Shown in pieces: positions 2,345 to 64,000 of a stretch of 64,000 bases of DNA. How positions within the stretch are numbered: the stretch's first letter is position 1; each line of letters opens with the position of its first letter. The translations under genes and the position numbers were made by a program. The notes below the pieces were generated by a model, which was given only the letters and a program-made list of their open reading frames with translations, was not told where the DNA came from and made no database searches. This stretch comes from Escherichia phage a20, in the sequence record OQ067374.1. One strand, given 5' to 3'.

Positions 2345-4327
2345 ATGTCACTTCTCTCTCCGGGCGTTGAGCTCAAAGAAACTACCGTACAGAGTACTGT
2401 AGTTAATAACTCCACTGGTACTGCTGCCCTGGCTGGAAAATTCCAATGGGGACCTGCATTCCAGATTAAACAAATCACTGATGAAGTTGCATTAGTTGAT
2501 ATGTTTGGTACTCCTAATACGGATACAGCAGATTATTTCATGTCTGCTATGAACTTCCTTCAATATGGTAATGACCTTCGTGTTGTACGCGCAGTTGACC
2601 GTGATACTGCTAAGAACTCATCTCCTGTAGCAGGCAATATTGAATTCACAATCTCTGCTGCTGGTAGTAACTATGCAGTTGGTGATAAAATTATCGTTAA
2701 GTATTTGACCGAAACTGTTGAAGCAGATGGTTATGTCACTTCAGTTGATGTCGATGGTAAAATTCTTAGCATTTATATCCCAACCGGTAAAATTATTGCT
2801 CGTGCAAAAGAAATTAATGAATATCCGGCATTGGGTTCTAACTGGACCGCCGAAGTTGCCAGTTCTTCTTCTGGACTCTCTGGCGTTATTACAATTGGTT
2901 CTATCGTAACCGATTCGGGTATTCTGTTAACTGAAGTTGAAACTTCTGAAGAAGCTATTACTTCTCTAACTTTCCAAGAATCTATTAAAAAATATGGTGT
3001 CCCAGGCGTAGTTGCTCTTTATCCTGGTGAACTTGGCGACCAGCTCGAAATTGAAATCGTATCTAAAGCAGACTATGACAAAGGTGCTTCAGCCCAGTTA
3101 AAAATTTATCCTGATGGTGGTACTCGCGCATCTACTGCTAAAGCAATCTTTGGGTATGGCCCACAAACTGATGACCAATATGCAATTATCGTTCGTCGTA
3201 ACGATGCTGTAGTCCAGAGTGTAGTTCTTTCTACTAAACGCGGTGAACGCGATATTTATGGTAGTAATATCTTTATTGATGATTTCTTTGCTAAAGGCGC
3301 AAGCAATTATATTTTCGCTACTGCACAAGGTTGGCCAAAAGGTTTCTCTGGCGTAATCAAACTGGGCGGTGGCTTATCATCTAATGAAACGGTTGACGCT
3401 GGTGATTTAATGGAAGCTTGGGATTTGTTTGCTGACCGCGAATCTGTTAATGCGCAGTTGTTTATTGCTGGTTCTTGTGCAGGTGAATCTTTAGAAGTTG
3501 CTTCTACAGTTCAGAAACATGTTGTAGCAATTGGTGATTCTCGCCAAGATTGCTTGGTTCTTTGCTCACCGCCACGTGCAACTATAGTCGGTATTCCTGT
3601 TAATCGTGCAGTTGATAATCTGGTTGATTGGCGTACTGCGTCAGGAACTTACACTGATAATAACTTTAATGTAAGTTCTACTTATGCTGCTATTGACGGT
3701 AACTATAAATATCAATATGATAAATATAATGATGTGAATCGTTGGGTTCCATTAGCTGCTGATATTGCCGGTCTTTGTGCTCGCACAGACAATATTTCTC
3801 AGCCTTGGATGTCTCCTGCCGGTTATAACCGTGGACAAATTCTTAACGTTATTAAGCTTGCAATTGAAACTCGTCAACCACAGCGTGATCGTTTGTATCA
3901 GGAAGCTATTAACCCTGTTACTGGTACCGGTGGTGATGGGTATGTTCTGTACGGCGATAAAACTGCCACTTCTGTTCCTTCACCATTTGACCGTATTAAC
4001 GTTCGTCGTTTGTTCAATATGGTTAAAACGAACATTGGTTCAGCATCTAAATATCGTCTGTTTGAATTGAACAACGCATTTACCCGTTCTTCTTTCCGTA
4101 CAGAGACTTCTCAATATCTACAGGGTATTAAAGCTCTTGGTGGTGTATATAACTTTAAAGTTGTTTGTGATACTACCAATAACACTCCAGCAGTTATCGA
4201 CCGTAATGAATTTGTAGCTACTTTCTACTTACAACCTGCCCGCTCGATAAATTATATTACGTTGAACTTTGTAGCAACAGCAACTGGTGCCGATTTCGAC
4301 GAACTGATTGGTGCTGTAGGTGGTTAA
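2345..4327 (+). CDS. 18: contractile tail sheath protein gp18
   Basis: 660 aa (T4 gp18 is about 659); begins MSLLSPGVELKETTV; late promoter TATAAATA upstream. Confidence 0.96.
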   Translation: MSLLSPGVELKETTVQSTVVNNSTGTAALAGKFQWGPAFQIKQITDEVALVDMFGTPNTDTADYFMSAMNFLQYGNDLRVVRAVDRDTAKNSSPVAGNIEFTISAAGSNYAVGDKIIVKYLTETVEADGYVTSVDVDGKILSIYIPTGKIIARAKEINEYPALGSNWTAEVASSSSGLSGVITIGSIVTDSGILLTEVETSEEAITSLTFQESIKKYGVPGVVALYPGELGDQLEIEIVSKADYDKGASAQLKIYPDGGTRASTAKAIFGYGPQTDDQYAIIVRRNDAVVQSVVLSTKRGERDIYGSNIFIDDFFAKGASNYIFATAQGWPKGFSGVIKLGGGLSSNETVDAGDLMEAWDLFADRESVNAQLFIAGSCAGESLEVASTVQKHVVAIGDSRQDCLVLCSPPRATIVGIPVNRAVDNLVDWRTASGTYTDNNFNVSSTYAAIDGNYKYQYDKYNDVNRWVPLAADIAGLCARTDNISQPWMSPAGYNRGQILNVIKLAIETRQPQRDRLYQEAINPVTGTGGDGYVLYGDKTATSVPSPFDRINVRRLFNMVKTNIGSASKYRLFELNNAFTRSSFRTETSQYLQGIKALGGVYNFKVVCDTTNNTPAVIDRNEFVATFYLQPARSINYITLNFVATATGADFDELIGAVGG

Positions 4328-10380: not shown

Positions 10381-10648
10381 ATTTCTGTGCAATTTCGATG
10401 TAAGTTTTCAAAATATTTTGCCAATTAGGCATACCTTCTTGGACATATGCCGGAGAACCGTCTTTGTTTTTGAATGATGCAAGTTTATCAGTGGCCCAAT
10501 AACCTTTAGCTCGAGCTTCAGAATCAACTTTCATCCATACTTTGTTGAAGGCATTACCATTAACTTTTGCACCATATTTTTCTACTAACTTAACTGCTTC
10601 AGCTTCCAGAACTTTTAAAGTATCTCGTAAGAAACGTGCTTTAGTCAT
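10379..10648 (-). CDS. hypothetical 89-aa early protein (orphan, antisense between genes 23 and 24)
   Basis: ORF with Shine-Dalgarno GAGGAG 8 nt upstream of ATG and an early-type promoter (GTTTAC, 18 nt, TACTAT) just upstream on minus strand; no family recognised. Confidence 0.55.
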   Translation of the reverse strand: MTKARFLRDTLKVLEAEAVKLVEKYGAKVNGNAFNKVWMKVDSEARAKGYWATDKLASFKNKDGSPAYVQEGMPNWQNILKTYIEIAQK

Positions 10649-10669
10649 TTTGTTTACTCCTCTGTAGTT

Positions 10670-12030: not shown

Positions 12031-12040
12031 TAAAAAAAAA

Positions 12041-12066
12041 GGGACCGTAAGGTCCCTTTTTTTCGT
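12041..12066. terminator. bidirectional terminator between gene 24 (+) and rnlB (-)
   Basis: Hairpin GGGACC-GTAA-GGTCCC flanked by an A9 run upstream and a T7 run downstream. Confidence 0.8.
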
Positions 12067-13064
12067 TATGATACTAATTCAATCCATGCAGGACGCAGAA
12101 CATCTTGCACCATTCGGACTAATTCTTTCTTAACAAGATTCGGATTATCGGATGATGTTAATACAATACCTTCACGAGAAGTTTCTTCCAGAATATCTTG
12201 AACAGTCAATCCCATCACTTTGCCAAAATCTTTTGGCGTTACAGTCCCAATCTTAGAAATCACATTATTAACACGGTTTAATGTAACATAACAAGCTAGA
12301 ACATCAAGCAAGTTTTTGTCAATTTCGGTTAATGGAACCTGAGTTTTAATAGGCTTATCAGACTTTTTCTTTTCACTGAATTTAGAGTTCTTGCACTTAA
12401 TAGCTACACGAGTACCGTTTGGCAGCCATTTAGGGAAACAAGGCTTCAGAACATAACCTTCTGCCGTATTATCGCCAATAACATTAGCATCAAATACACA
12501 ATTATTTGCTTCTACAAGGTCTTCTGACGCAGTAGCATTATAAGCGGCTAAGACAGAATCAAGGTCGTTTGGAATCATGATAAGAGCATCAAATGTGCCA
12601 CGTCCAAGCATTGGTGCCATTTTAAAACCGAATTCATTACAGAAATCTTGCATTTCGTAATCGGTCAAATACGTATTATCACCACTTTCTGTATTGATAA
12701 GGATATCGAACACATAAAAATCTTTTTCACCGTAGTCAACACCTTTCTGGATTCCACCACCAGCGAATTCACCAAATACTTGATATGATACGGCTCGAGC
12801 TGTGTACATGAATTCCTGAACGGCTTTAATAGCTTTATCATACTTCTTGAGTACGATTTCATAACCATAAAAATCTTCTGCTGGAAGAATAGGGCCTGTG
12901 CGCTTGGCGCATGTGACGTTGTCACGTTCAATTATTAACGAGAAGTTAGTCCCATGGATTTTCTCACGTGCTACCCAAACACCAGTAGTCAAACCATTAG
13001 TGTAGAGTTTTTCAATAAACTTAGAGTTGTAGTGGTTTTCAAGACTGCTGTATTTCTTAAACAT
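12066..13064 (-). CDS. rnlB: RNA ligase 2 (RnlB)
   Basis: 332 aa; N-terminus [12 protein letters not shown] and nucleotidyltransferase KIHGTN lysine motif match T4 Rnl2. Confidence 0.95.
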
Positions 13065-13183: not shown

Positions 13184-13435
13184 CTAGAACTTGATTTCTA
13201 TCCAGTGCCCATCACGCTGGTCGTGATTAATTTTATACTGAAAGCCATTATCACGTAACCACTGCCCGATTTGCTCGGTGATAGTTAAATCATTCTTTGA
13301 CGGATAGTATGTAAATTGTGTCTGGCCTTTGTCAGCGGCTTTCTCTGCCATCACAGAGAAGTTAGTAATAAAATCACTCAACAAATTGGCTTTAGTGGCC
13401 AGAGCCCTTTCTCTTAATTCCTGTGCAAAACTCAT
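13184..13435 (-). CDS. hypothetical protein (24.2-like)
   Basis: 83-aa ORF downstream of rnlB; T4 has small 24.2/24.3 genes here. Confidence 0.55.
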   Translation of the reverse strand: MSFAQELRERALATKANLLSDFITNFSVMAEKAADKGQTQFTYYPSKNDLTITEQIGQWLRDNGFQYKINHDQRDGHWIEIKF

Positions 13436-13632
13436 TTCTTCACCTTTTTATTAATCAGACGTTTACGGTATACAACCTTTTCTTTTGCTTTAAACTTTGA
13501 CCGAGCTGTCTCGGCTTTAGTCCATAGTAATCCAACTTCTTTAGGTTGTAAACCGATTTTTTGAGCAATTTCTACGAATGAAAATCCCGCCTCATGTAAT
13601 GTATAAACTTCAACTTCAGCTCTCATAATCAA
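13432..13632 (-). CDS. hypothetical small basic protein with helix-turn-helix-like segment (24.3-like)
   Basis: 66 aa; segment FSFVEIAQKIGLQPKEVGLLW resembles an HTH; basic C-terminus. Confidence 0.5.
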   Translation of the reverse strand: MIMRAEVEVYTLHEAGFSFVEIAQKIGLQPKEVGLLWTKAETARSKFKAKEKVVYRKRLINKKVKK

Positions 13633-13707
13633 TCCCGTATTATTTGGTTTGTGCCATTATATACATCAATCTCAAGTTTGGTTTTGTATGCTTTAAAAAC
13701 GAAGAAA

Positions 13708-13721
13708 GGGGCCGAAGCCCC
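13708..13721 (-). terminator. terminator hairpin after hoc
   Basis: Minus-strand GGGGC-UUCG-GCCCC followed by UUUCUUCGUUUUU. Confidence 0.65.
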
Positions 13722-13727
13722 TTACGA

Positions 13728-15143
13728 TTATGGATATGTATAGATGATACCAGTTTCCAAAGCAGTTTTATGGATGATGTATCCATTACGTGATTCTTGA
13801 ACATCAACTTCTGGATAGTCTTTCATCATCTTCTGAAGAGTGTAACGATGCAGGTAGTATTTACTATCTGGATCGTCAATTTTCCAATCTTTACCTTCTT
13901 CAGTCATTTTTTGGATTTCATCCATAACCCACCATCCGCACCAGATGTAAGCTGAAGTACGATGTGGAAGAGGATGAACATAAGGTAATTCACCTTCTGG
14001 TTCAATTGGAGTCCGTTCAGCAATAACAACTTCAGCGGTTGAACTAATTGTCTTTGAAGTATAATTATCTTTAGTTAATACTGCTTCAACTTTAATTGTA
14101 TGAGTACCCGCTGAGGAGGTATCAATACTATAAGTATTAGTAGAATTACTTTCTGCTACGTTGTCTTTCTTCCAAGAATACACAATATTAGTATCACCAG
14201 GAGCACCAGTAACAGATGCTGTTAAAGTTGCAGTTCCACCAACAGTAGTATTAACTGATGGCGGAGATAAAGAAATGGTGGCACTATTAAATGTCGCATT
14301 ATTAGTTACTACTGTTGCTTCTGCTGAAATTTCTTTTGTAACATAATTTGTTGCAGAAACAGATGCGGTGCATTTAAGAGTTTTACTTCCGACTTCGGTC
14401 GGAGTGAATTTATACGTAGCAGAAGTTGCATCCGGAATATTACTGTCATCCATTGACCATTGGAATGTTATAGTAGCACCTGAAGGTGCACTAGAGACAT
14501 TTGCAGTTAAAGTAATAGGAACACCAAAGACTGTAGTCGGAGACTCGGGTGTAATTTTTTAGCGTCGAAGAATTAGCCTTTTTATTTACAGTCAAAGAAA
14601 CCGCTGATGATTCTACTGTTTTATCAACGTAATCAGTTGCAGTCACTGTGACAGAGCAAGTTATAGACTTAGTTCCTTCAGTTGTTGGTGTATATTCAAA
14701 GGTTGATTGCTTTTGACCGTCAACAGCGACCCCGTCAACTTTCCATGTATAATCAATAGCAGCACCAGTAGGTTGATTGCTTACATTAGCAGTGAATGTT
14801 GTTGCTGTTCCAATTTCTACTGCCGCAGGAGAAGCCGGAGTAACAGTGATAGTGGAATTATTTTCTTTCTTATTAACAGTGATAGTTGTTGATGCTTCAG
14901 CTATTTCCGGATCTCCTGCGGAAAGTGTATTAGTTGCAACCACTTTAATTTTTTTGTTCCTGCTGGAGAAGCAAGAGTATAATCCATTGTAGCAGCCGTA
15001 GAGCCCTGTGTTATATCATCTACAGTCCAGACGTATGTAATAGTACCGTCTGGAGTTTGACCACTGGGAGTAGCAGTAAACTGCTTAGTCTCATCTATAA
15101 CTCCAGTAGATGTTTTAGGAGTTATATCAACTGTAAAAGCCAT
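13728..15143 (-). pseudogene. hoc: hoc (capsid decoration protein, Ig-like domains) interrupted by two homopolymer frameshifts
   Basis: Three consecutive minus-strand ORFs (15143-14901, 14943-14491, 14453-13728) together align with T4 Hoc, including the C-terminal capsid-binding segment EGELPYVHPLPHR...IIYTYP; frames switch at an A7 run (plus 14949-14955) and an A6 run (plus 14555-14560). Confidence 0.8.
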
Positions 15144-15152
15144 AAGTTATCC

Positions 15153-15821
15153 TTATTTTAATGTTACGAAAGAAGAATTACGAGTTTCACGAATTAGAAC
15201 TGATCCATCGCGATTAATATAATAAATTAAGCTAAATAATGTTTGGTGAGCAGAAGCGTGCACAAAACTGGTTGGGCGAGATTTCCAATCTGGGGTTTCG
15301 GCTATCCATTGATAAATCCACCAAGGAACAGTAACATAACCTGGGGCTTTGCCTAATTTAATGAGTGTAGGACTAAAATTTTCAGGCAGAACAAATTCTA
15401 CTTCTTTATTTACCTCTGTCTCAGGCTCTTTTTCAGATTCAACAACCTGAGTAATTGCTTCTTCGAATTTATCATGGTCGAATTCTTTTTCTTGTTCGAC
15501 AACTTCTAATACTTCAACTTGTTCTGTTGGAGAATCAAACAACAGAATAGCTTCTTCTTTAACTTCTTCGTTGGTGAAATTAACACCGTCCACATCATCT
15601 GCGGCAGTAATTAAATCGGTGATAGATAATCCATCGGTTTCAGGTAATGGTTCATCAGCCAGTGCGTTAAGAGCTTCTTCGATATCAATAACAATATTAT
15701 CGAATGATTTTGTTTTCTTAACACTAATGCCAAATTGTTTCGCATATTCGAACAGTTTAGCTTTGGCTTCCTTTTTATCAGAAAGAGCACGTAACTCTTC
15801 AATATAGTCTTTATCGATCAT
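15153..15821 (-). CDS. inh: Inh, inhibitor of prohead protease
   Basis: 222 aa, acidic; position between hoc and uvsW as in T4. Confidence 0.7.
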   Translation of the reverse strand: MIDKDYIEELRALSDKKEAKAKLFEYAKQFGISVKKTKSFDNIVIDIEEALNALADEPLPETDGLSITDLITAADDVDGVNFTNEEVKEEAILLFDSPTEQVEVLEVVEQEKEFDHDKFEEAITQVVESEKEPETEVNKEVEFVLPENFSPTLIKLGKAPGYVTVPWWIYQWIAETPDWKSRPTSFVHASAHQTLFSLIYYINRDGSVLIRETRNSSFVTLK

Positions 15822-15834
15822 GGTATTTCCTCAT

Positions 15835-15842
15835 TATAAATA
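15835..15842 (+). promoter_or_regulatory. late promoter (TATAAATA) for uvsW
   Basis: Exact TATAAATA about 30 nt upstream of the uvsW ATG. Confidence 0.65.
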
Positions 15843-15871
15843 TAACTATATTTATTACATGGTAATTTGAC

Positions 15872-42419: not shown

Positions 42420-42922
42420 TTAGAAATATTTTTTGTATGAATTGATTACATTTTGGTCTACATCATTATCAATTTGTGCGACAAGATAAGAACTGATTTC
42501 AACTTCCTGAGGAGCGGCTTGAACTAAATCAGAGTTCAGATATTCACGAATCCAAGGATACGGATGCTTGGTCGGAGCATCAGTGATTGGGCATGGCAAA
42601 CCACACTGTTTCATACGAGACACAGTCAAGTAATCAACAAAAGCACACATACTCTGCGTATTGATACCTGGACATGTACCGTCTTTAAAGAGGTGTGCAG
42701 CCCATTCCTTCTCTTGACTATTTACTTCCATAAAAATGTCAACTGCTTCTTGTTCACATTCTTTAGCAATTTGAACCCACTCATCACCATCAGTACCAGA
42801 TTGAAGTTGACGGATAATGTACTGAGTACCCTTGAGGTGGAGTTGTTCGTCACGAGCAATGAACTTCATAATCTTTGCATTACCTTCCATAATTTCCATA
42901 TTTTTATGGAAGTTAAAGGTAC
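42420..42922 (-). CDS. nrdB: ribonucleotide reductase small subunit NrdB, exon 2
   Basis: Reading frame aligns with R2 C-terminal half (NMEIMEGNAKI..IARDEQLHLKGTQ; E. coli LMEGNAKII..IARDEALHLTGTQ); 3' splice site placed after intron-terminal G at 42923 (inferred). Confidence 0.85.
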
Positions 42923-44012
42923 CGTATGTTCGATTGAGCTCGCTAATTCTCAACCCGTTCTCTTATGAACTGCTGCATGTTACCATGCAGTCCAGACTAT
43001 ATCACAATCCCGGAGGGATTCTCCCCATTTCGAGTCGCTTGACCCTACGTCCGAAGACTAGTCGTTGAACCTTGTTTTGCAATTGTCGCCGTGCCATCGT
43101 TTATATGTTGATGGTGATAAATCTTTCTTATCACAATATGGACAATTCAATTGAATTCTATTTGGATTTAATTTACATCTGTCATTATGTTTTAGATAAA
43201 ATCCAGGACCTTTACCAATGTGACCACAAAAATCACATGTGATTTCTTTTTGTGCAGGATGGGTCCCGTTCTTAACCATTTCTAATGTTTTTGCTGATGT
43301 TCTTTTCTTATGGTCTTCTGATAAGAAATGATGTGAACCGTCATTTACCCGTTTTGATTGAGTTTCTGACTGCATTTTACCACCGCAAAATACATGAGTA
43401 CCTTCTTTTATAGCTGCAATATTGCGTTCTTTAACTTTTGCAATATGCTCAGCTTGTTGAAAATTATGTATACCTAATGCAACTCTATTTAAATTAGATT
43501 TACGCTGTATTTCACCATCTAAAAGATGAAATGTACCATTTTCTATCTTAGATTTAATAGAGGCAATATTTTTAGCTCGTACTTCAGGGATATTAAAAAT
43601 CTGGATTTCTCTAGATTTTGCGGCTTTAGAAGCTAATTCAGAAATTTCTTCAGGAGAATATTTCATTCTAAGCTTTATAGCATGACAAGCCTGGTAATCT
43701 TTTTGAGCTAAATGTATATCATAATGTTCCTGTATAGAAAGGCACATCAAATTATCTAAATCATTATTTTCACGGTTACCGTCTTTATGATGGATTTCGT
43801 ATGTTCTTCCATCAGAATCTTTAGGTATAGGTCCGTTAGCATCTATCCAAATTTTTCTATAGTTCAATTGTGCATCCTCTTAAAAGTATAATCATATTTA
43901 TATTATACTAATTAAAGGTGCAAGCAAAACCTTGGCTGCTAGTTTTCCTATAAAGGACTTTCCAGCAATTAAAGGAGTTTTCGATAAACGTTACCGTTTA
44001 AAGGCGCATTTT
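42923..44012 (-). mobile_element. group I intron in nrdB (about 1090 nt) carrying an I-TevIII-like HNH homing endonuclease ORF
   Basis: nrdB reading frame is interrupted by in-frame TAA right after ...EAIRFYVSFA and resumes about 1.1 kb downstream; intron 3' region has GTTCAACGACTAGTC and TAGGGTCAAGCGACTCGAAA elements paralleling the td intron; boundaries inferred. Confidence 0.8.
43058..43867 (-). CDS. intron-encoded HNH homing endonuclease (I-TevIII-like, full length)
   Basis: 269 aa; HNH motif EIHHKDGNRENNDLDNLM; Cys-rich C-terminal zinc-finger-like region; apparent TTG start 7 nt after SD AAGAGGA. Confidence 0.85.
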   Translation of the reverse strand: MNYRKIWIDANGPIPKDSDGRTYEIHHKDGNRENNDLDNLMCLSIQEHYDIHLAQKDYQACHAIKLRMKYSPEEISELASKAAKSREIQIFNIPEVRAKNIASIKSKIENGTFHLLDGEIQRKSNLNRVALGIHNFQQAEHIAKVKERNIAAIKEGTHVFCGGKMQSETQSKRVNDGSHHFLSEDHKKRTSAKTLEMVKNGTHPAQKEITCDFCGHIGKGPGFYLKHNDRCKLNPNRIQLNCPYCDKKDLSPSTYKRWHGDNCKTRFND

Positions 44013-44688
44013 ACGCAAAAGATACATAAAAACGAATAGCTTCTAAGGCATTAATAACGTGCAAACAGAGGTAAAGAGATTTCATTAAAGCACGTTTAGC
44101 TTCGGCTTCTTGTTTAATAGCTCGGTTTAAACGAAAGTCGGCATCAGGAGATTCTTTAGCTAATTCTACAAATTCTTTAGCATTTTCCCAATAACGAGTT
44201 TTAACCAGAACATCATCGTAATAGCGACCAATAGATTCAGCTCGTTTCATGATTGCTTCGTCTAATACAATCTCATCAAATACCTTAGATGGGTCCGTAT
44301 AAAGATTTCGCATAATATGAGTATACGAACGAGAGTGAATAGTTTCACTGAATGTCCATGTTGCAACCCACGTATCTAATGAAGGGTCGGAAATCAGTGC
44401 CATAAGTACCGCAGATGGGGCCCTGCCTTGGATAGAATCTAATAATGATTGATACTTAAGATTGTTTGTAAAGATGTCCTGTTGGAACTGAGGAAGCTTA
44501 TTGAACTGCGCAGAGTCCAACATCAAGTTTACCTCTTCTGGGCGCCAGAAAAACGACAATTGCTTTTCAATAAGTTCTTCAAAAACTTTATGTCGCTGAA
44601 TATCATAACGTGCGAGGCCAAGACCAGAACCAAAGAACATTGGTTCATTCAAAACATCGACTTGTTGTGTGTTAAAAACTGTACTCAT
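44013..44688 (-). CDS. nrdB: ribonucleotide reductase small subunit NrdB, exon 1
   Basis: N-terminal half of R2 (FSETIHSRSYTHI, EAIRFYVSFA) as in E. coli and T4 NrdB. Confidence 0.9.
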
Positions 44689-47966: not shown

Positions 47967-48278
47967 TTATACCGCCATTTTAGCTTTGATAGTTGGATGA
48001 GATTCATAATTTTTAAGAACGAAATCAGAATGTGTCATCGTTCCAGTAACCCAGTCCATTTGGATTTTTGTAGGCCAATTCTCAAAATTACTAGGCCAAT
48101 TAATTTCAAGAGAACACAACTCTTTAGGTTCACGACGAAGAACTTCTTTGCATTGTTCTACATGATTGCTGTAGATATGCGTGTTGCCGCCTGAGAACAC
48201 TAAATCACCTGGGATAAGGTTACACATCTTCGCTACAATATGCGTCAAGGCAGCGTACGAGGCAATGTTGAACGGTAG
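47967..48278 (-). CDS. td: thymidylate synthase, exon 2
   Basis: Encodes LPFNIASYAALTHIVAKMCNL...KAKMAV, the TS C-terminus; 3' splice junction ...CTGAACATAATG|CTACCG matches the T4 td intron. Confidence 0.92.
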   Translation of the reverse strand, partial: LPFNIASYAALTHIVAKMCNLIPGDLVFSGGNTHIYSNHVEQCKEVLRREPKELCSLEINWPSNFENWPTKIQMDWVTGTMTHSDFVLKNYESHPTIKAKMAV

Positions 48279-49294
48279 CATTATGTTCAGATAAGGTCGT
48301 TAATCTTATCCCGGAATTATATCCAGCTGCATGTCACCATGCAGAGCAGACTATATCTCCAACTTGTTAAAGCAAGTTGTCTATCGTTTCGAGTCACTTG
48401 ACCCTACTCCCTAAAGGGATAGTCGTTAGGCATTTATGTAGAACCAATTCCACTTATCAGATTTTACACGGTAAGTAACTAATCCTGATGAAATTTCAAA
48501 ATGTCTAGCCGCATCGGCTGCACATTCAAAAATAATCCCATCGCATGAAATCTTTTTGATGTTAGCTGGCTTTTTGCCTTTCATCTTTTCAGATAGTTTA
48601 GTTTTAGTTTTTTCTGAATGTTTGTGATTAAAGAACGGGTTATTTTCACCTGAACGTTTTCGGCACTTTCCACAAGTATCGGCCGAAGATGGTATGCGAA
48701 CACCGCATTTACAAAACTTGTGGTTTTCTGGATTCCATCGGCCATTTTTACTTCCGTGTTTACCATAAAGAGCTTTCCGACCATCAGGACCAAGCTTAAG
48801 CATCTTAGCTTTAACAGTTTCAGCTCGTTTCTTAGCAATTTCTTCTTTTAATGGATGATTTGAAAGCACATCACCAAAAGACGCATCAGCAATATTATAT
48901 CCATTAATTTTAGAATTTAGCTCTTTAATCCAAAAATTTTCTCGTTCAATAATCAAATCTTTCTCATATGGAATTTCTTCCAGTACAGAGCATTCAAAAA
49001 CATTACCATGTTTATTAAAAGACCTTTGAAATTTTATAGAAGAGTGAACACCGTTTTCAAGGTCTTTAAAATGTCTCTTCCATCTTTTCTCAAAATCTTT
49101 AGCACTTCCAACATACACTTTACCGTTTAAAGTGTTTTTAATCTGATAAATTCCGCTTTTCATAAACACCTCTTTTTATATAGAAGTATTTATTAAAGGG
49201 TAGTCCTACAATTTAGCACGGGATTGTCTACTAGAGAGGTCCCCCGTTTAGATAGATTACAAGTATAAGTCACCTTATACCTAGGCCTAAATTA
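48279..49294 (-). mobile_element. group I intron in td (1016 nt) carrying I-TevI
   Basis: 5' exon ends ...TTAGGT; intron begins TAATTTAGGCCTAGGTATAAGGTGACTTATACTTGTAATC and ends ...AACGACCTTATCTGAACATAATG, as in the T4 td intron; length 1016 nt. Confidence 0.92.
48426..49163 (-). CDS. intron-encoded GIY-YIG homing endonuclease I-TevI
   Basis: 245 aa from MKSGIYQIKNTLNGKVYVGSAKDFEKRW (GIY-YIG motif); Cys4 zinc finger and C-terminal DNA-binding domain. Confidence 0.95.
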   Translation of the reverse strand: MKSGIYQIKNTLNGKVYVGSAKDFEKRWKRHFKDLENGVHSSIKFQRSFNKHGNVFECSVLEEIPYEKDLIIERENFWIKELNSKINGYNIADASFGDVLSNHPLKEEIAKKRAETVKAKMLKLGPDGRKALYGKHGSKNGRWNPENHKFCKCGVRIPSSADTCGKCRKRSGENNPFFNHKHSEKTKTKLSEKMKGKKPANIKKISCDGIIFECAADAARHFEISSGLVTYRVKSDKWNWFYINA

Positions 49295-50666
<1,372 letters not shown>

Positions 50667-63672: not shown

Positions 63673-64000
63673 TATGAAACTCTATCACTATTATTTTGAC
63701 ACTAAAGAATTTTACAAAGAAGAAAATTATAAACCATTAAAAGGCGTAGGATTTCCGGCTCATTCGACACCAAAAAAACCTTTAGACCCTAAAGAAGGCT
63801 ATGCTGTTGTATTTGATGAACGCGAACAAGAATGGGTATATATTGAAGACCATCGTGGAAAAACAGTATGGACTTATGATAAGCAAAAAATTGTTATTGA
63901 CACTCCAGGTGCTCTTCAAAATGTTACTACAGAAGAACCTGGTGAATTTGACATTTGGACCGACGACGGGTGGAAGGAAGATGAAGCATATAAACGCGTA
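63673..64000 (+). CDS. 38: gp38 tail-fiber assembly chaperone (3'-truncated by window end)
   Basis: Begins MKLYHYYFDTKEFYKEENYKP, matching T4 gp38 N-terminus; runs off the window. Confidence 0.85.

Follow-up and report, generated by a model that had tools for sequence, protein, structure and literature searches.

A frameshifted hoc locus in the RB69-like Escherichia phage a20, probably a recent null allele of a dispensable gene

Results

Organization of the hoc locus

We analysed a stretch of 64,000 nt (hereafter the window) from the RB69-like Escherichia phage a20 (alpha20; OQ067374.1), in which hoc stands within the gene order inh-hoc-24.3-24.2-rnlB, an arrangement shared with RB69 and NRG-P0074 (Table 1). 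The GenBank record enters three pieces of hoc as separate CDS, and the three minus-strand ORFs of the original prediction were found with the coordinates and sequences described there. ORF2 covers Hoc residues about 68-196, from the remainder of Ig domain 1 through Ig domain 2 into the beginning of domain 3, ends in 21 out-of-frame residues and lacks the capsid-binding domain; the AGGA before its GTG lies 14 nt upstream, a poor spacing. ORF3 opens within Ig domain 3 and continues through Ig domain 4 to the capsid-binding domain, which is therefore encoded in a20, but downstream of both frameshifts.

Table 1. Features of the hoc locus and its neighbourhood, in window coordinates
Feature	Coordinates	Strand	Remarks
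hoc locus (pseudogene as written)	13728-15143	minus	1416 nt; three ORFs, two frames
Shine-Dalgarno AAGGA of hoc	15150-15154	minus	6 nt from hoc ATG; intact
ORF1	15143-14901	minus	80 aa; WBF82578.1, "hypothetical protein a20_18"; Hoc residues 1-65 (genuine) plus an out-of-frame tail of 15 residues
Site 1: A7 run (plus strand T7)	14949-14955	minus	GGAAC-A7-TTAAAG; encodes KK(I) of motif GTKKIKVV
ORF2	14943-14491	minus	150 aa; WBF82577.1, "Hoc-like head decoration"; opens at internal GTG
Site 2: A6 run (plus strand T6)	14555-14560	minus	ACGCT-A6-TTACACC
ORF3	14453-13728	minus	241 aa; WBF82576.1, "Hoc-like head decoration"; Hoc residues 231-471
Intrinsic terminator: hairpin AAGGGGCTTCGGCCCCTT plus T-rich tail	13706-13723	minus	just past hoc stop codon; intact
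Neighbouring ORF (Inh)	15153-15821		
Neighbouring ORF	13432-13632		
Neighbouring ORF	13184-13435		
Neighbouring ORF (RnlB)	12066-13064		

Restoring A8 at site 1 and A5 at site 2 yields an uninterrupted ORF of 471 aa, equal in length to RB69 hoc. The repaired protein is 95% identical, at 100% coverage, to the cluster holding the Hoc proteins of ESh27 and RB69, and it matches both PHROG 1149 ("Hoc-like head decoration"; E=5e-130) and the T4 Hoc chains in the PDB (5vf3_Z and others; E=3e-147). BLASTP self-similarity to the domains of RB69 Hoc identifies four internal repeats, and the Pfam matches (PKD, PKD_3, Ig_3 and I-set) fall at residues 100-174, 203-254 and 290-360. Residues 389-471 are matched by the C-terminal Hoc PHROGs 21694, 14282 and 11091, and residues 289-471 align with T4 Hoc 194-376. 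Homology and domain matches thus bear out the earlier claim that repair of the 1416-nt locus gives a Hoc of 471 aa that has four Ig-like repeats and ends in the conserved capsid-binding region.

The signals around the gene are intact. Pairing of the hoc start with the anti-Shine-Dalgarno sequence (-6.0 kcal/mol) exceeds that of 75% of the long ORFs in the window, and NRG-P0074 carries a terminator annotation at the place matching the hairpin past the hoc stop codon. No exact minus-strand late promoter TATAAATA was found upstream of inh-hoc; a near-match, TAATAAATA, was spotted by eye at about 15852-15860.

Two lesions and what can be translated

The two sites are separated by 394 nt, site 2 being downstream. 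In the frame entering from the hoc start codon, site 1 reads A_AAA_AAA (aca AAA AAA tta), the first stop follows 48 nt past the run, and about ten stops occur before site 2 is reached. Only the 80-aa product of ORF1 is possible from the hoc start, in agreement with the original prediction that nothing but an N-terminal fragment would be made. That prediction had also called the two frameshifts compensating. This holds for length, since the net change is zero, and does not hold for function: a read-through protein with a scrambled middle, the one product that a net-zero change might have suggested, is ruled out because about ten entry-frame stops separate site 1 from site 2. Two indels of 1 nt will in any case be of opposite sign by chance half the time. 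Hoc is not encoded in one reading frame, and we file the locus as a hoc pseudogene or null allele.

Run lengths at the two sites among relatives

In an alignment of a20 with NRG-P0074, RB69, Pinarejo and PTE-Eco15, the two A runs are the sole indels in hoc, so that the frame changes of opposite sign are located where they had been proposed. Site 1 is A7 in a20, A9 in NRG-P0074 and A8 in the three others; at site 2 all four relatives have A5, against A6 in a20. LNA2, phage a15 and a gut-metagenome phage likewise have A8 at site 1 and A5 at site 2. We then probed a phage collection with short exact-variant queries. The site-1 region is present in 27 records, with A8 in 26, A9 in one (NRG-P0074) and A7 in none (0/27); the A8 count comprises 23 exact matches and 3 records of the same span with base substitutions, taken as A8. 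Among 29 database records for site 2, the A6 form occurs in none (0/29) and the exact A5 form in 12. By these sequence counts, both hoc lesions are private to a20.

The collection does not contain a20 itself, and its best hoc match is 96.5%. The exact products of ORF1, ORF2 and ORF3 are each found on one 168,870-bp record only, that of a20, and no independent assembly matches them; a scan of IMG/VR with the site-1 flanks and a variable run gave no match. Off-frame lengths of site 1 are seen in 2 of 28 genomes, both within the clade of a20 and NRG-P0074, two phages placed with a third, 6phi8, in the same species-level clade (PMC13600099), and this confinement hints at shared history.

Sequence divergence within hoc

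Apart from the indels, 34 substitutions in hoc are private to a20, and all of them lie in the first 95 nt; the remaining 1321 nt have none. The first ~95 nt (15049-15143, minus strand) form a mosaic patch, whose encoded N terminus, MAFTVDITPKTSTGVIDETKQFTATPSGQT, matches the five-Ig-domain T4-like Hoc of P0019 at 28 of 29 residues, rather than RB69 Hoc. The sequence pattern suggests a recombination junction inside Ig domain 1 of a20 hoc. Exchange of hoc also appears to have crossed genera: phage a15 (OQ067373.1), described as T2-like in the source paper (PMC10869271) and filed under Tequatrovirus, carries an intact RB69-type hoc of four domains, about 96% identical in sequence to that of a20.

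The gene is otherwise pristine, as would be expected of a very recent inactivation and of an artefact alike. If hoc has been inactivated, the event should be recent, because the start codon, Shine-Dalgarno sequence and terminator are intact and no private substitution is found beyond nt 95.

Broken hoc alleles in other genomes

With about 99% identity, NRG-P0074 (PQ480333.1) is the nearest relative over the window as a whole. Its hoc also loses the frame at the A run of site 1, and the annotation divides the gene into two CDS (66 aa and 404 aa; 1558-2974 of the extracted locus). The alleles nevertheless differ. NRG-P0074 has gained one base over the usual A8 and keeps A5 at site 2, so that a single -1 slip would restore its hoc, whereas a20, with A7, needs two corrections.

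A further broken allele is found in a Mosigvirus contig of 164.9 kb from a human gut metagenome (ENA ERZ916169, ERR321586, megahit k127_2281), in which hoc (2501-3915 of the extracted locus) is split into ORFs of 211 and 241 aa because, ten nt downstream of site 2, ACACCCG has become ACACCG (C3 to C2). The 211- and 241-aa products are present on 9-11 contigs. This would be a hoc-defective phage in a habitat where Hoc is thought to aid adherence to mucus. Among Tequatrovirus genomes, the near-identical vB_EcoM_FN (MZ170041.1) and vB_EcoM_F1 (MT682712.1) differ at one position in the 1.87-kb hoc locus, namely a change from A7 in F1 to A8 in FN within GGAGTT-A(n)-TTAAATG, which codes for the homologous motif GVKKIKC; hoc of FN consists of two CDS. 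Going by these sequences, small slips have apparently cost deposited T4-like genomes their hoc more than once.

Allele or assembly error

The likeliest alternative to a mutant phage is an error of sequencing, assembly or consensus, the phage truly having A8 and A5, or a mixed stock from which a non-functional combination entered the consensus. To weigh it, we surveyed frame integrity and run lengths across the window. Comparing 211 stop-to-stop ORFs of NRG-P0074 and RB69 with the window by tblastn, we found frame changes among real genes only in hoc and at the endonuclease-bearing inserts of td and nrdB; the other flagged ORFs lie antisense to hoc or beside rIII and are shadow ORFs, not genes. 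Hoc is the sole frameshifted gene in 64 kb. Of 306 homopolymer runs of 5 or more in the window, 276 could be compared with NRG-P0074, and the lengths agree in 273. The exceptions are both hoc sites and the T run at 12057-12063, which lies in an intergenic terminator tail, so that the two hoc sites are the only discrepancies in coding sequence. Most other BLAST gaps against NRG-P0074 are alignment noise within diverged mosaic patches.

General homopolymer noise is therefore unlikely, since 3 of 276 runs differ and hoc alone is frameshifted. Random errors would both fall within the 4 of 306 runs that belong to hoc with a probability of about 2e-4 if all runs are weighted equally, and of about 1e-3 to 1e-2 if they are weighted by length. 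That run lengths change only under relaxed selection suggests real mutation filtered by selection, and not sequencing error, which is blind to function.

The type and place of the lesions are, on the other hand, what an artefact would produce. Both are single-base changes in homopolymer length, the classic error type, and site 1 as A8 is the longest coding homopolymer of the 64-kb window (other runs of 7 or more are intergenic, save an A7 in gene 34 and an unplaced A7 at 63772-63778). Because of this length it is the most slippage-prone coding site, for phage polymerase and sequencer alike. The deviation of NRG-P0074, from a separate project, at the same site may mean that the run is hard to call; and the a20 allele is in no second assembly. 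Site 2, in contrast, is merely a matter of A5 or A6, a length reliably called by short-read platforms, and an Illumina metagenome assembly likewise has a broken hoc, at the C3 run. The source paper reports whole-genome sequencing at >1000x, with SKESA assembly and BWA mapping, for the engineered derivatives, or CAPs (PMC10869271); short-read assembly at such depth speaks against a miscall, although the figure is stated explicitly for these derivatives and not for the wild-type a20 genome.

There remains the coincidence that 1321 nt contain two private indels and not one private point substitution, which would also suit an artefact. In T4, however, A runs are reportedly the dominant hot spots of spontaneous frameshift mutation, a view said to go back to Benzer in 1961, Streisinger et al. 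in 1966 and Pribnow et al. in 1981, and with a spontaneous spectrum of that kind it is not odd to find two hits in runs and no point substitution. Taking both sides together, we regard an artefact as rather unlikely and favour a genuine, recent hoc-null allele that arose by replication slippage in a dispensable gene, to which we assign a probability of about 0.65. The lesions would then be present in the phage, and not only in its assembly.

Could a functional Hoc still be made?

A genuine A7/A6 genotype would not by itself preclude expression. Slippage of the ribosome or of RNA polymerase by -1 at A_AAA_AAA (site 1) and by +1 at CTA_AAA_AAT (site 2) could yield some full-length Hoc: the first site is a canonical X_XXY_YYZ heptamer in phase, at which a -1 shift restores the wild-type GTKKIKVV, and at the second tRNA-Lys could re-pair on AAA in the +1 frame. 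Such expression would nevertheless require two independent shifts of opposite sign on one message, with a yield that is the product of two small numbers. Comparing folding energies with those of shuffled sequences over the 50 and 70 nt downstream, we found no stimulatory RNA structure at either site. The sequence after site 1 folds no better than its shuffles (z = 0.0), and after site 2 there is only a weak hairpin (-9.3 kcal/mol; z = -1.7 and -0.4 for 50 and 70 nt). An AGGA does precede site 1, but at 2 nt instead of the 10-14 nt that stimulate -1 shifting, and site 2 has neither a stop nor a rare codon to drive a +1 shift. Nor is the out-of-frame arrangement conserved, as the counts of A8 at site 1 (26/27) and A6 at site 2 (0/29) attest. 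We give programmed recoding hardly any credence.

A second possibility is that ORF3 is translated from its own ATG and decorates the capsid in the manner of the short Hoc of Muldoon and PG7. The whole capsid-binding domain is in frame with this ATG, the Hoc of some other phages is naturally short, having one or two Ig domains (PMC10385173), and a 241-aa ORF is also what is left in the gut-metagenome allele. The ATG, however, has no Shine-Dalgarno sequence, and its anti-Shine-Dalgarno pairing (-0.9 kcal/mol) is just that of the median random ATG in the window; it is 38 nt past the stop of ORF2, itself poorly initiated, and it falls in the middle of an Ig domain. We tried ORF3 as an independently translated mini-Hoc and, for want of a Shine-Dalgarno sequence, judge it very improbable.

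Finally, slippage might make an on/off switch of the A8 run in RB69-type hoc and of the homologous A7 run in some hoc genes of T4 type. If so, a population would contain both Hoc-decorated and bare virions, hedging adherence to mucus or host surfaces against free diffusion or evasion of antibodies, and plaque purification would have captured the "off" state in a20 (A7), NRG-P0074 (A9) and FN (A8, where F1 has A7). In NRG-P0074, hoc could even be partly expressed if RNA polymerase slips on A9. Lengths of A7, A8 and A9 are indeed seen at site 1, yet only 2 of 28 genomes deviate, and for a20 itself the second lesion, which locks hoc off, argues against phase variation. We consider a switch of this kind highly unlikely.

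Mobile elements and terminators elsewhere in the window

The space separating gene 24 from rnlB contains, at 12032-12063, a GGGACC...GGTCCC hairpin with an A9 run on one side and a T7 run on the other, which probably terminates transcription in both directions. Each of the two runs varies in length across a20, NRG-P0074 and RB69, as natural drift at an unconstrained site.

Two genes are interrupted by about 1 kb each, nrdB (~42920-44014) with an endonuclease-like ORF at 43058-43867 and td (~48278-49295) with one at 48426-49169. The corresponding ORFs of NRG-P0074 are annotated as "intron-like DNA endonuclease" and "homing endonuclease", and RB69 has neither insert. An Rfam scan of 12000-50500 at the gathering threshold gave no match, and therefore provides neither a known RNA element at hoc nor support for group I introns in td and nrdB. 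Homing endonuclease genes stand in the uvsW-inh and gene 23-gene 24 intervals of NRG-P0074 but not in those of a20 (window 15822-15871 and 10382-10657); RB69 lacks one at least between uvsW and inh. The homing endonucleases flanking the head-gene cluster are thus presence/absence polymorphisms.

Discussion

The three explanations that the original prediction had left open can now be ranked, with a null allele most likely, an artefact less likely and slippage-dependent expression very unlikely. For the null allele we propose the following course, in which both the order of the two hits and a capsid free of Hoc are our reconstruction. The T4-type polymerase would have slipped in two A runs of hoc during replication, removing one base from A8 to give A7 at site 1 and adding one base to A5 to give A6 at site 2; that slippage was the mechanism in a20 is suggested by the sequence of the runs. 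The first hit would have been tolerated because hoc is dispensable for plaque formation, and it could have been fixed in nature or by the series of single-plaque bottlenecks that isolating a phage involves; the second, falling in an already dead gene, would have been neutral. The intact hoc start would then yield only the 80-aa fragment, and the virion is predicted to lack Hoc on its capsid.

Hoc is the most immunogenic capsid protein of T4-type phages and a proposed mediator of adherence to mucus. The state of the gene in a20 is of some practical interest. Its genome is one of four deposited with Gencay et al. (2023, Nat Biotechnol), and alpha20.4, one of four engineered phages that make up the clinical-stage cocktail SNIPR001, descends from wild-type a20 (PMC10869271). 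[quoted passage not shown] One component lineage of the cocktail is probably without Hoc, and such a component could differ from its partners in gut retention, aggregation and the induction of antibodies. For annotators, the three GenBank CDS are a reminder that they are fragments of a single hoc pseudogene. The loss of a dispensable decoration gene through slippage in A runs is a known kind of event and biologically routine, and the main value of the observation is practical.

With E. coli dnaX, whose -1 frameshifting takes place at A_AAA_AAG, site 1 of a20 shares an A heptamer in phase, A_AAA_AAA; unlike dnaX, it has no downstream stem-loop and no properly spaced upstream element resembling a Shine-Dalgarno sequence, its off-frame arrangement is not conserved, and full-length expression would call for another shift, of the opposite sign. 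Classical hoc-defective mutants are said to have been described by Ishii and Yanagida in 1977. Hoc is nonessential, and the spontaneous hoc mutation C496T (ochre) of T4 HAP1 leaves a capsid without Hoc (PMC10580926, PMC10385173). The lesion of HAP1 (T4 delta-Hoc) is a substitution, whereas a20 has two homopolymer frameshifts in an RB69-type hoc of four Ig domains; and the Hoc-less capsid is established for HAP1, whereas for a20 it is predicted from the sequence. A further parallel is with the A-run hot spots of T4 rII and lysozyme explained by Streisinger slippage, at which, as in a20, single bases are gained or lost within a run of A, with the difference that slippage in a20 is deduced from the runs themselves.
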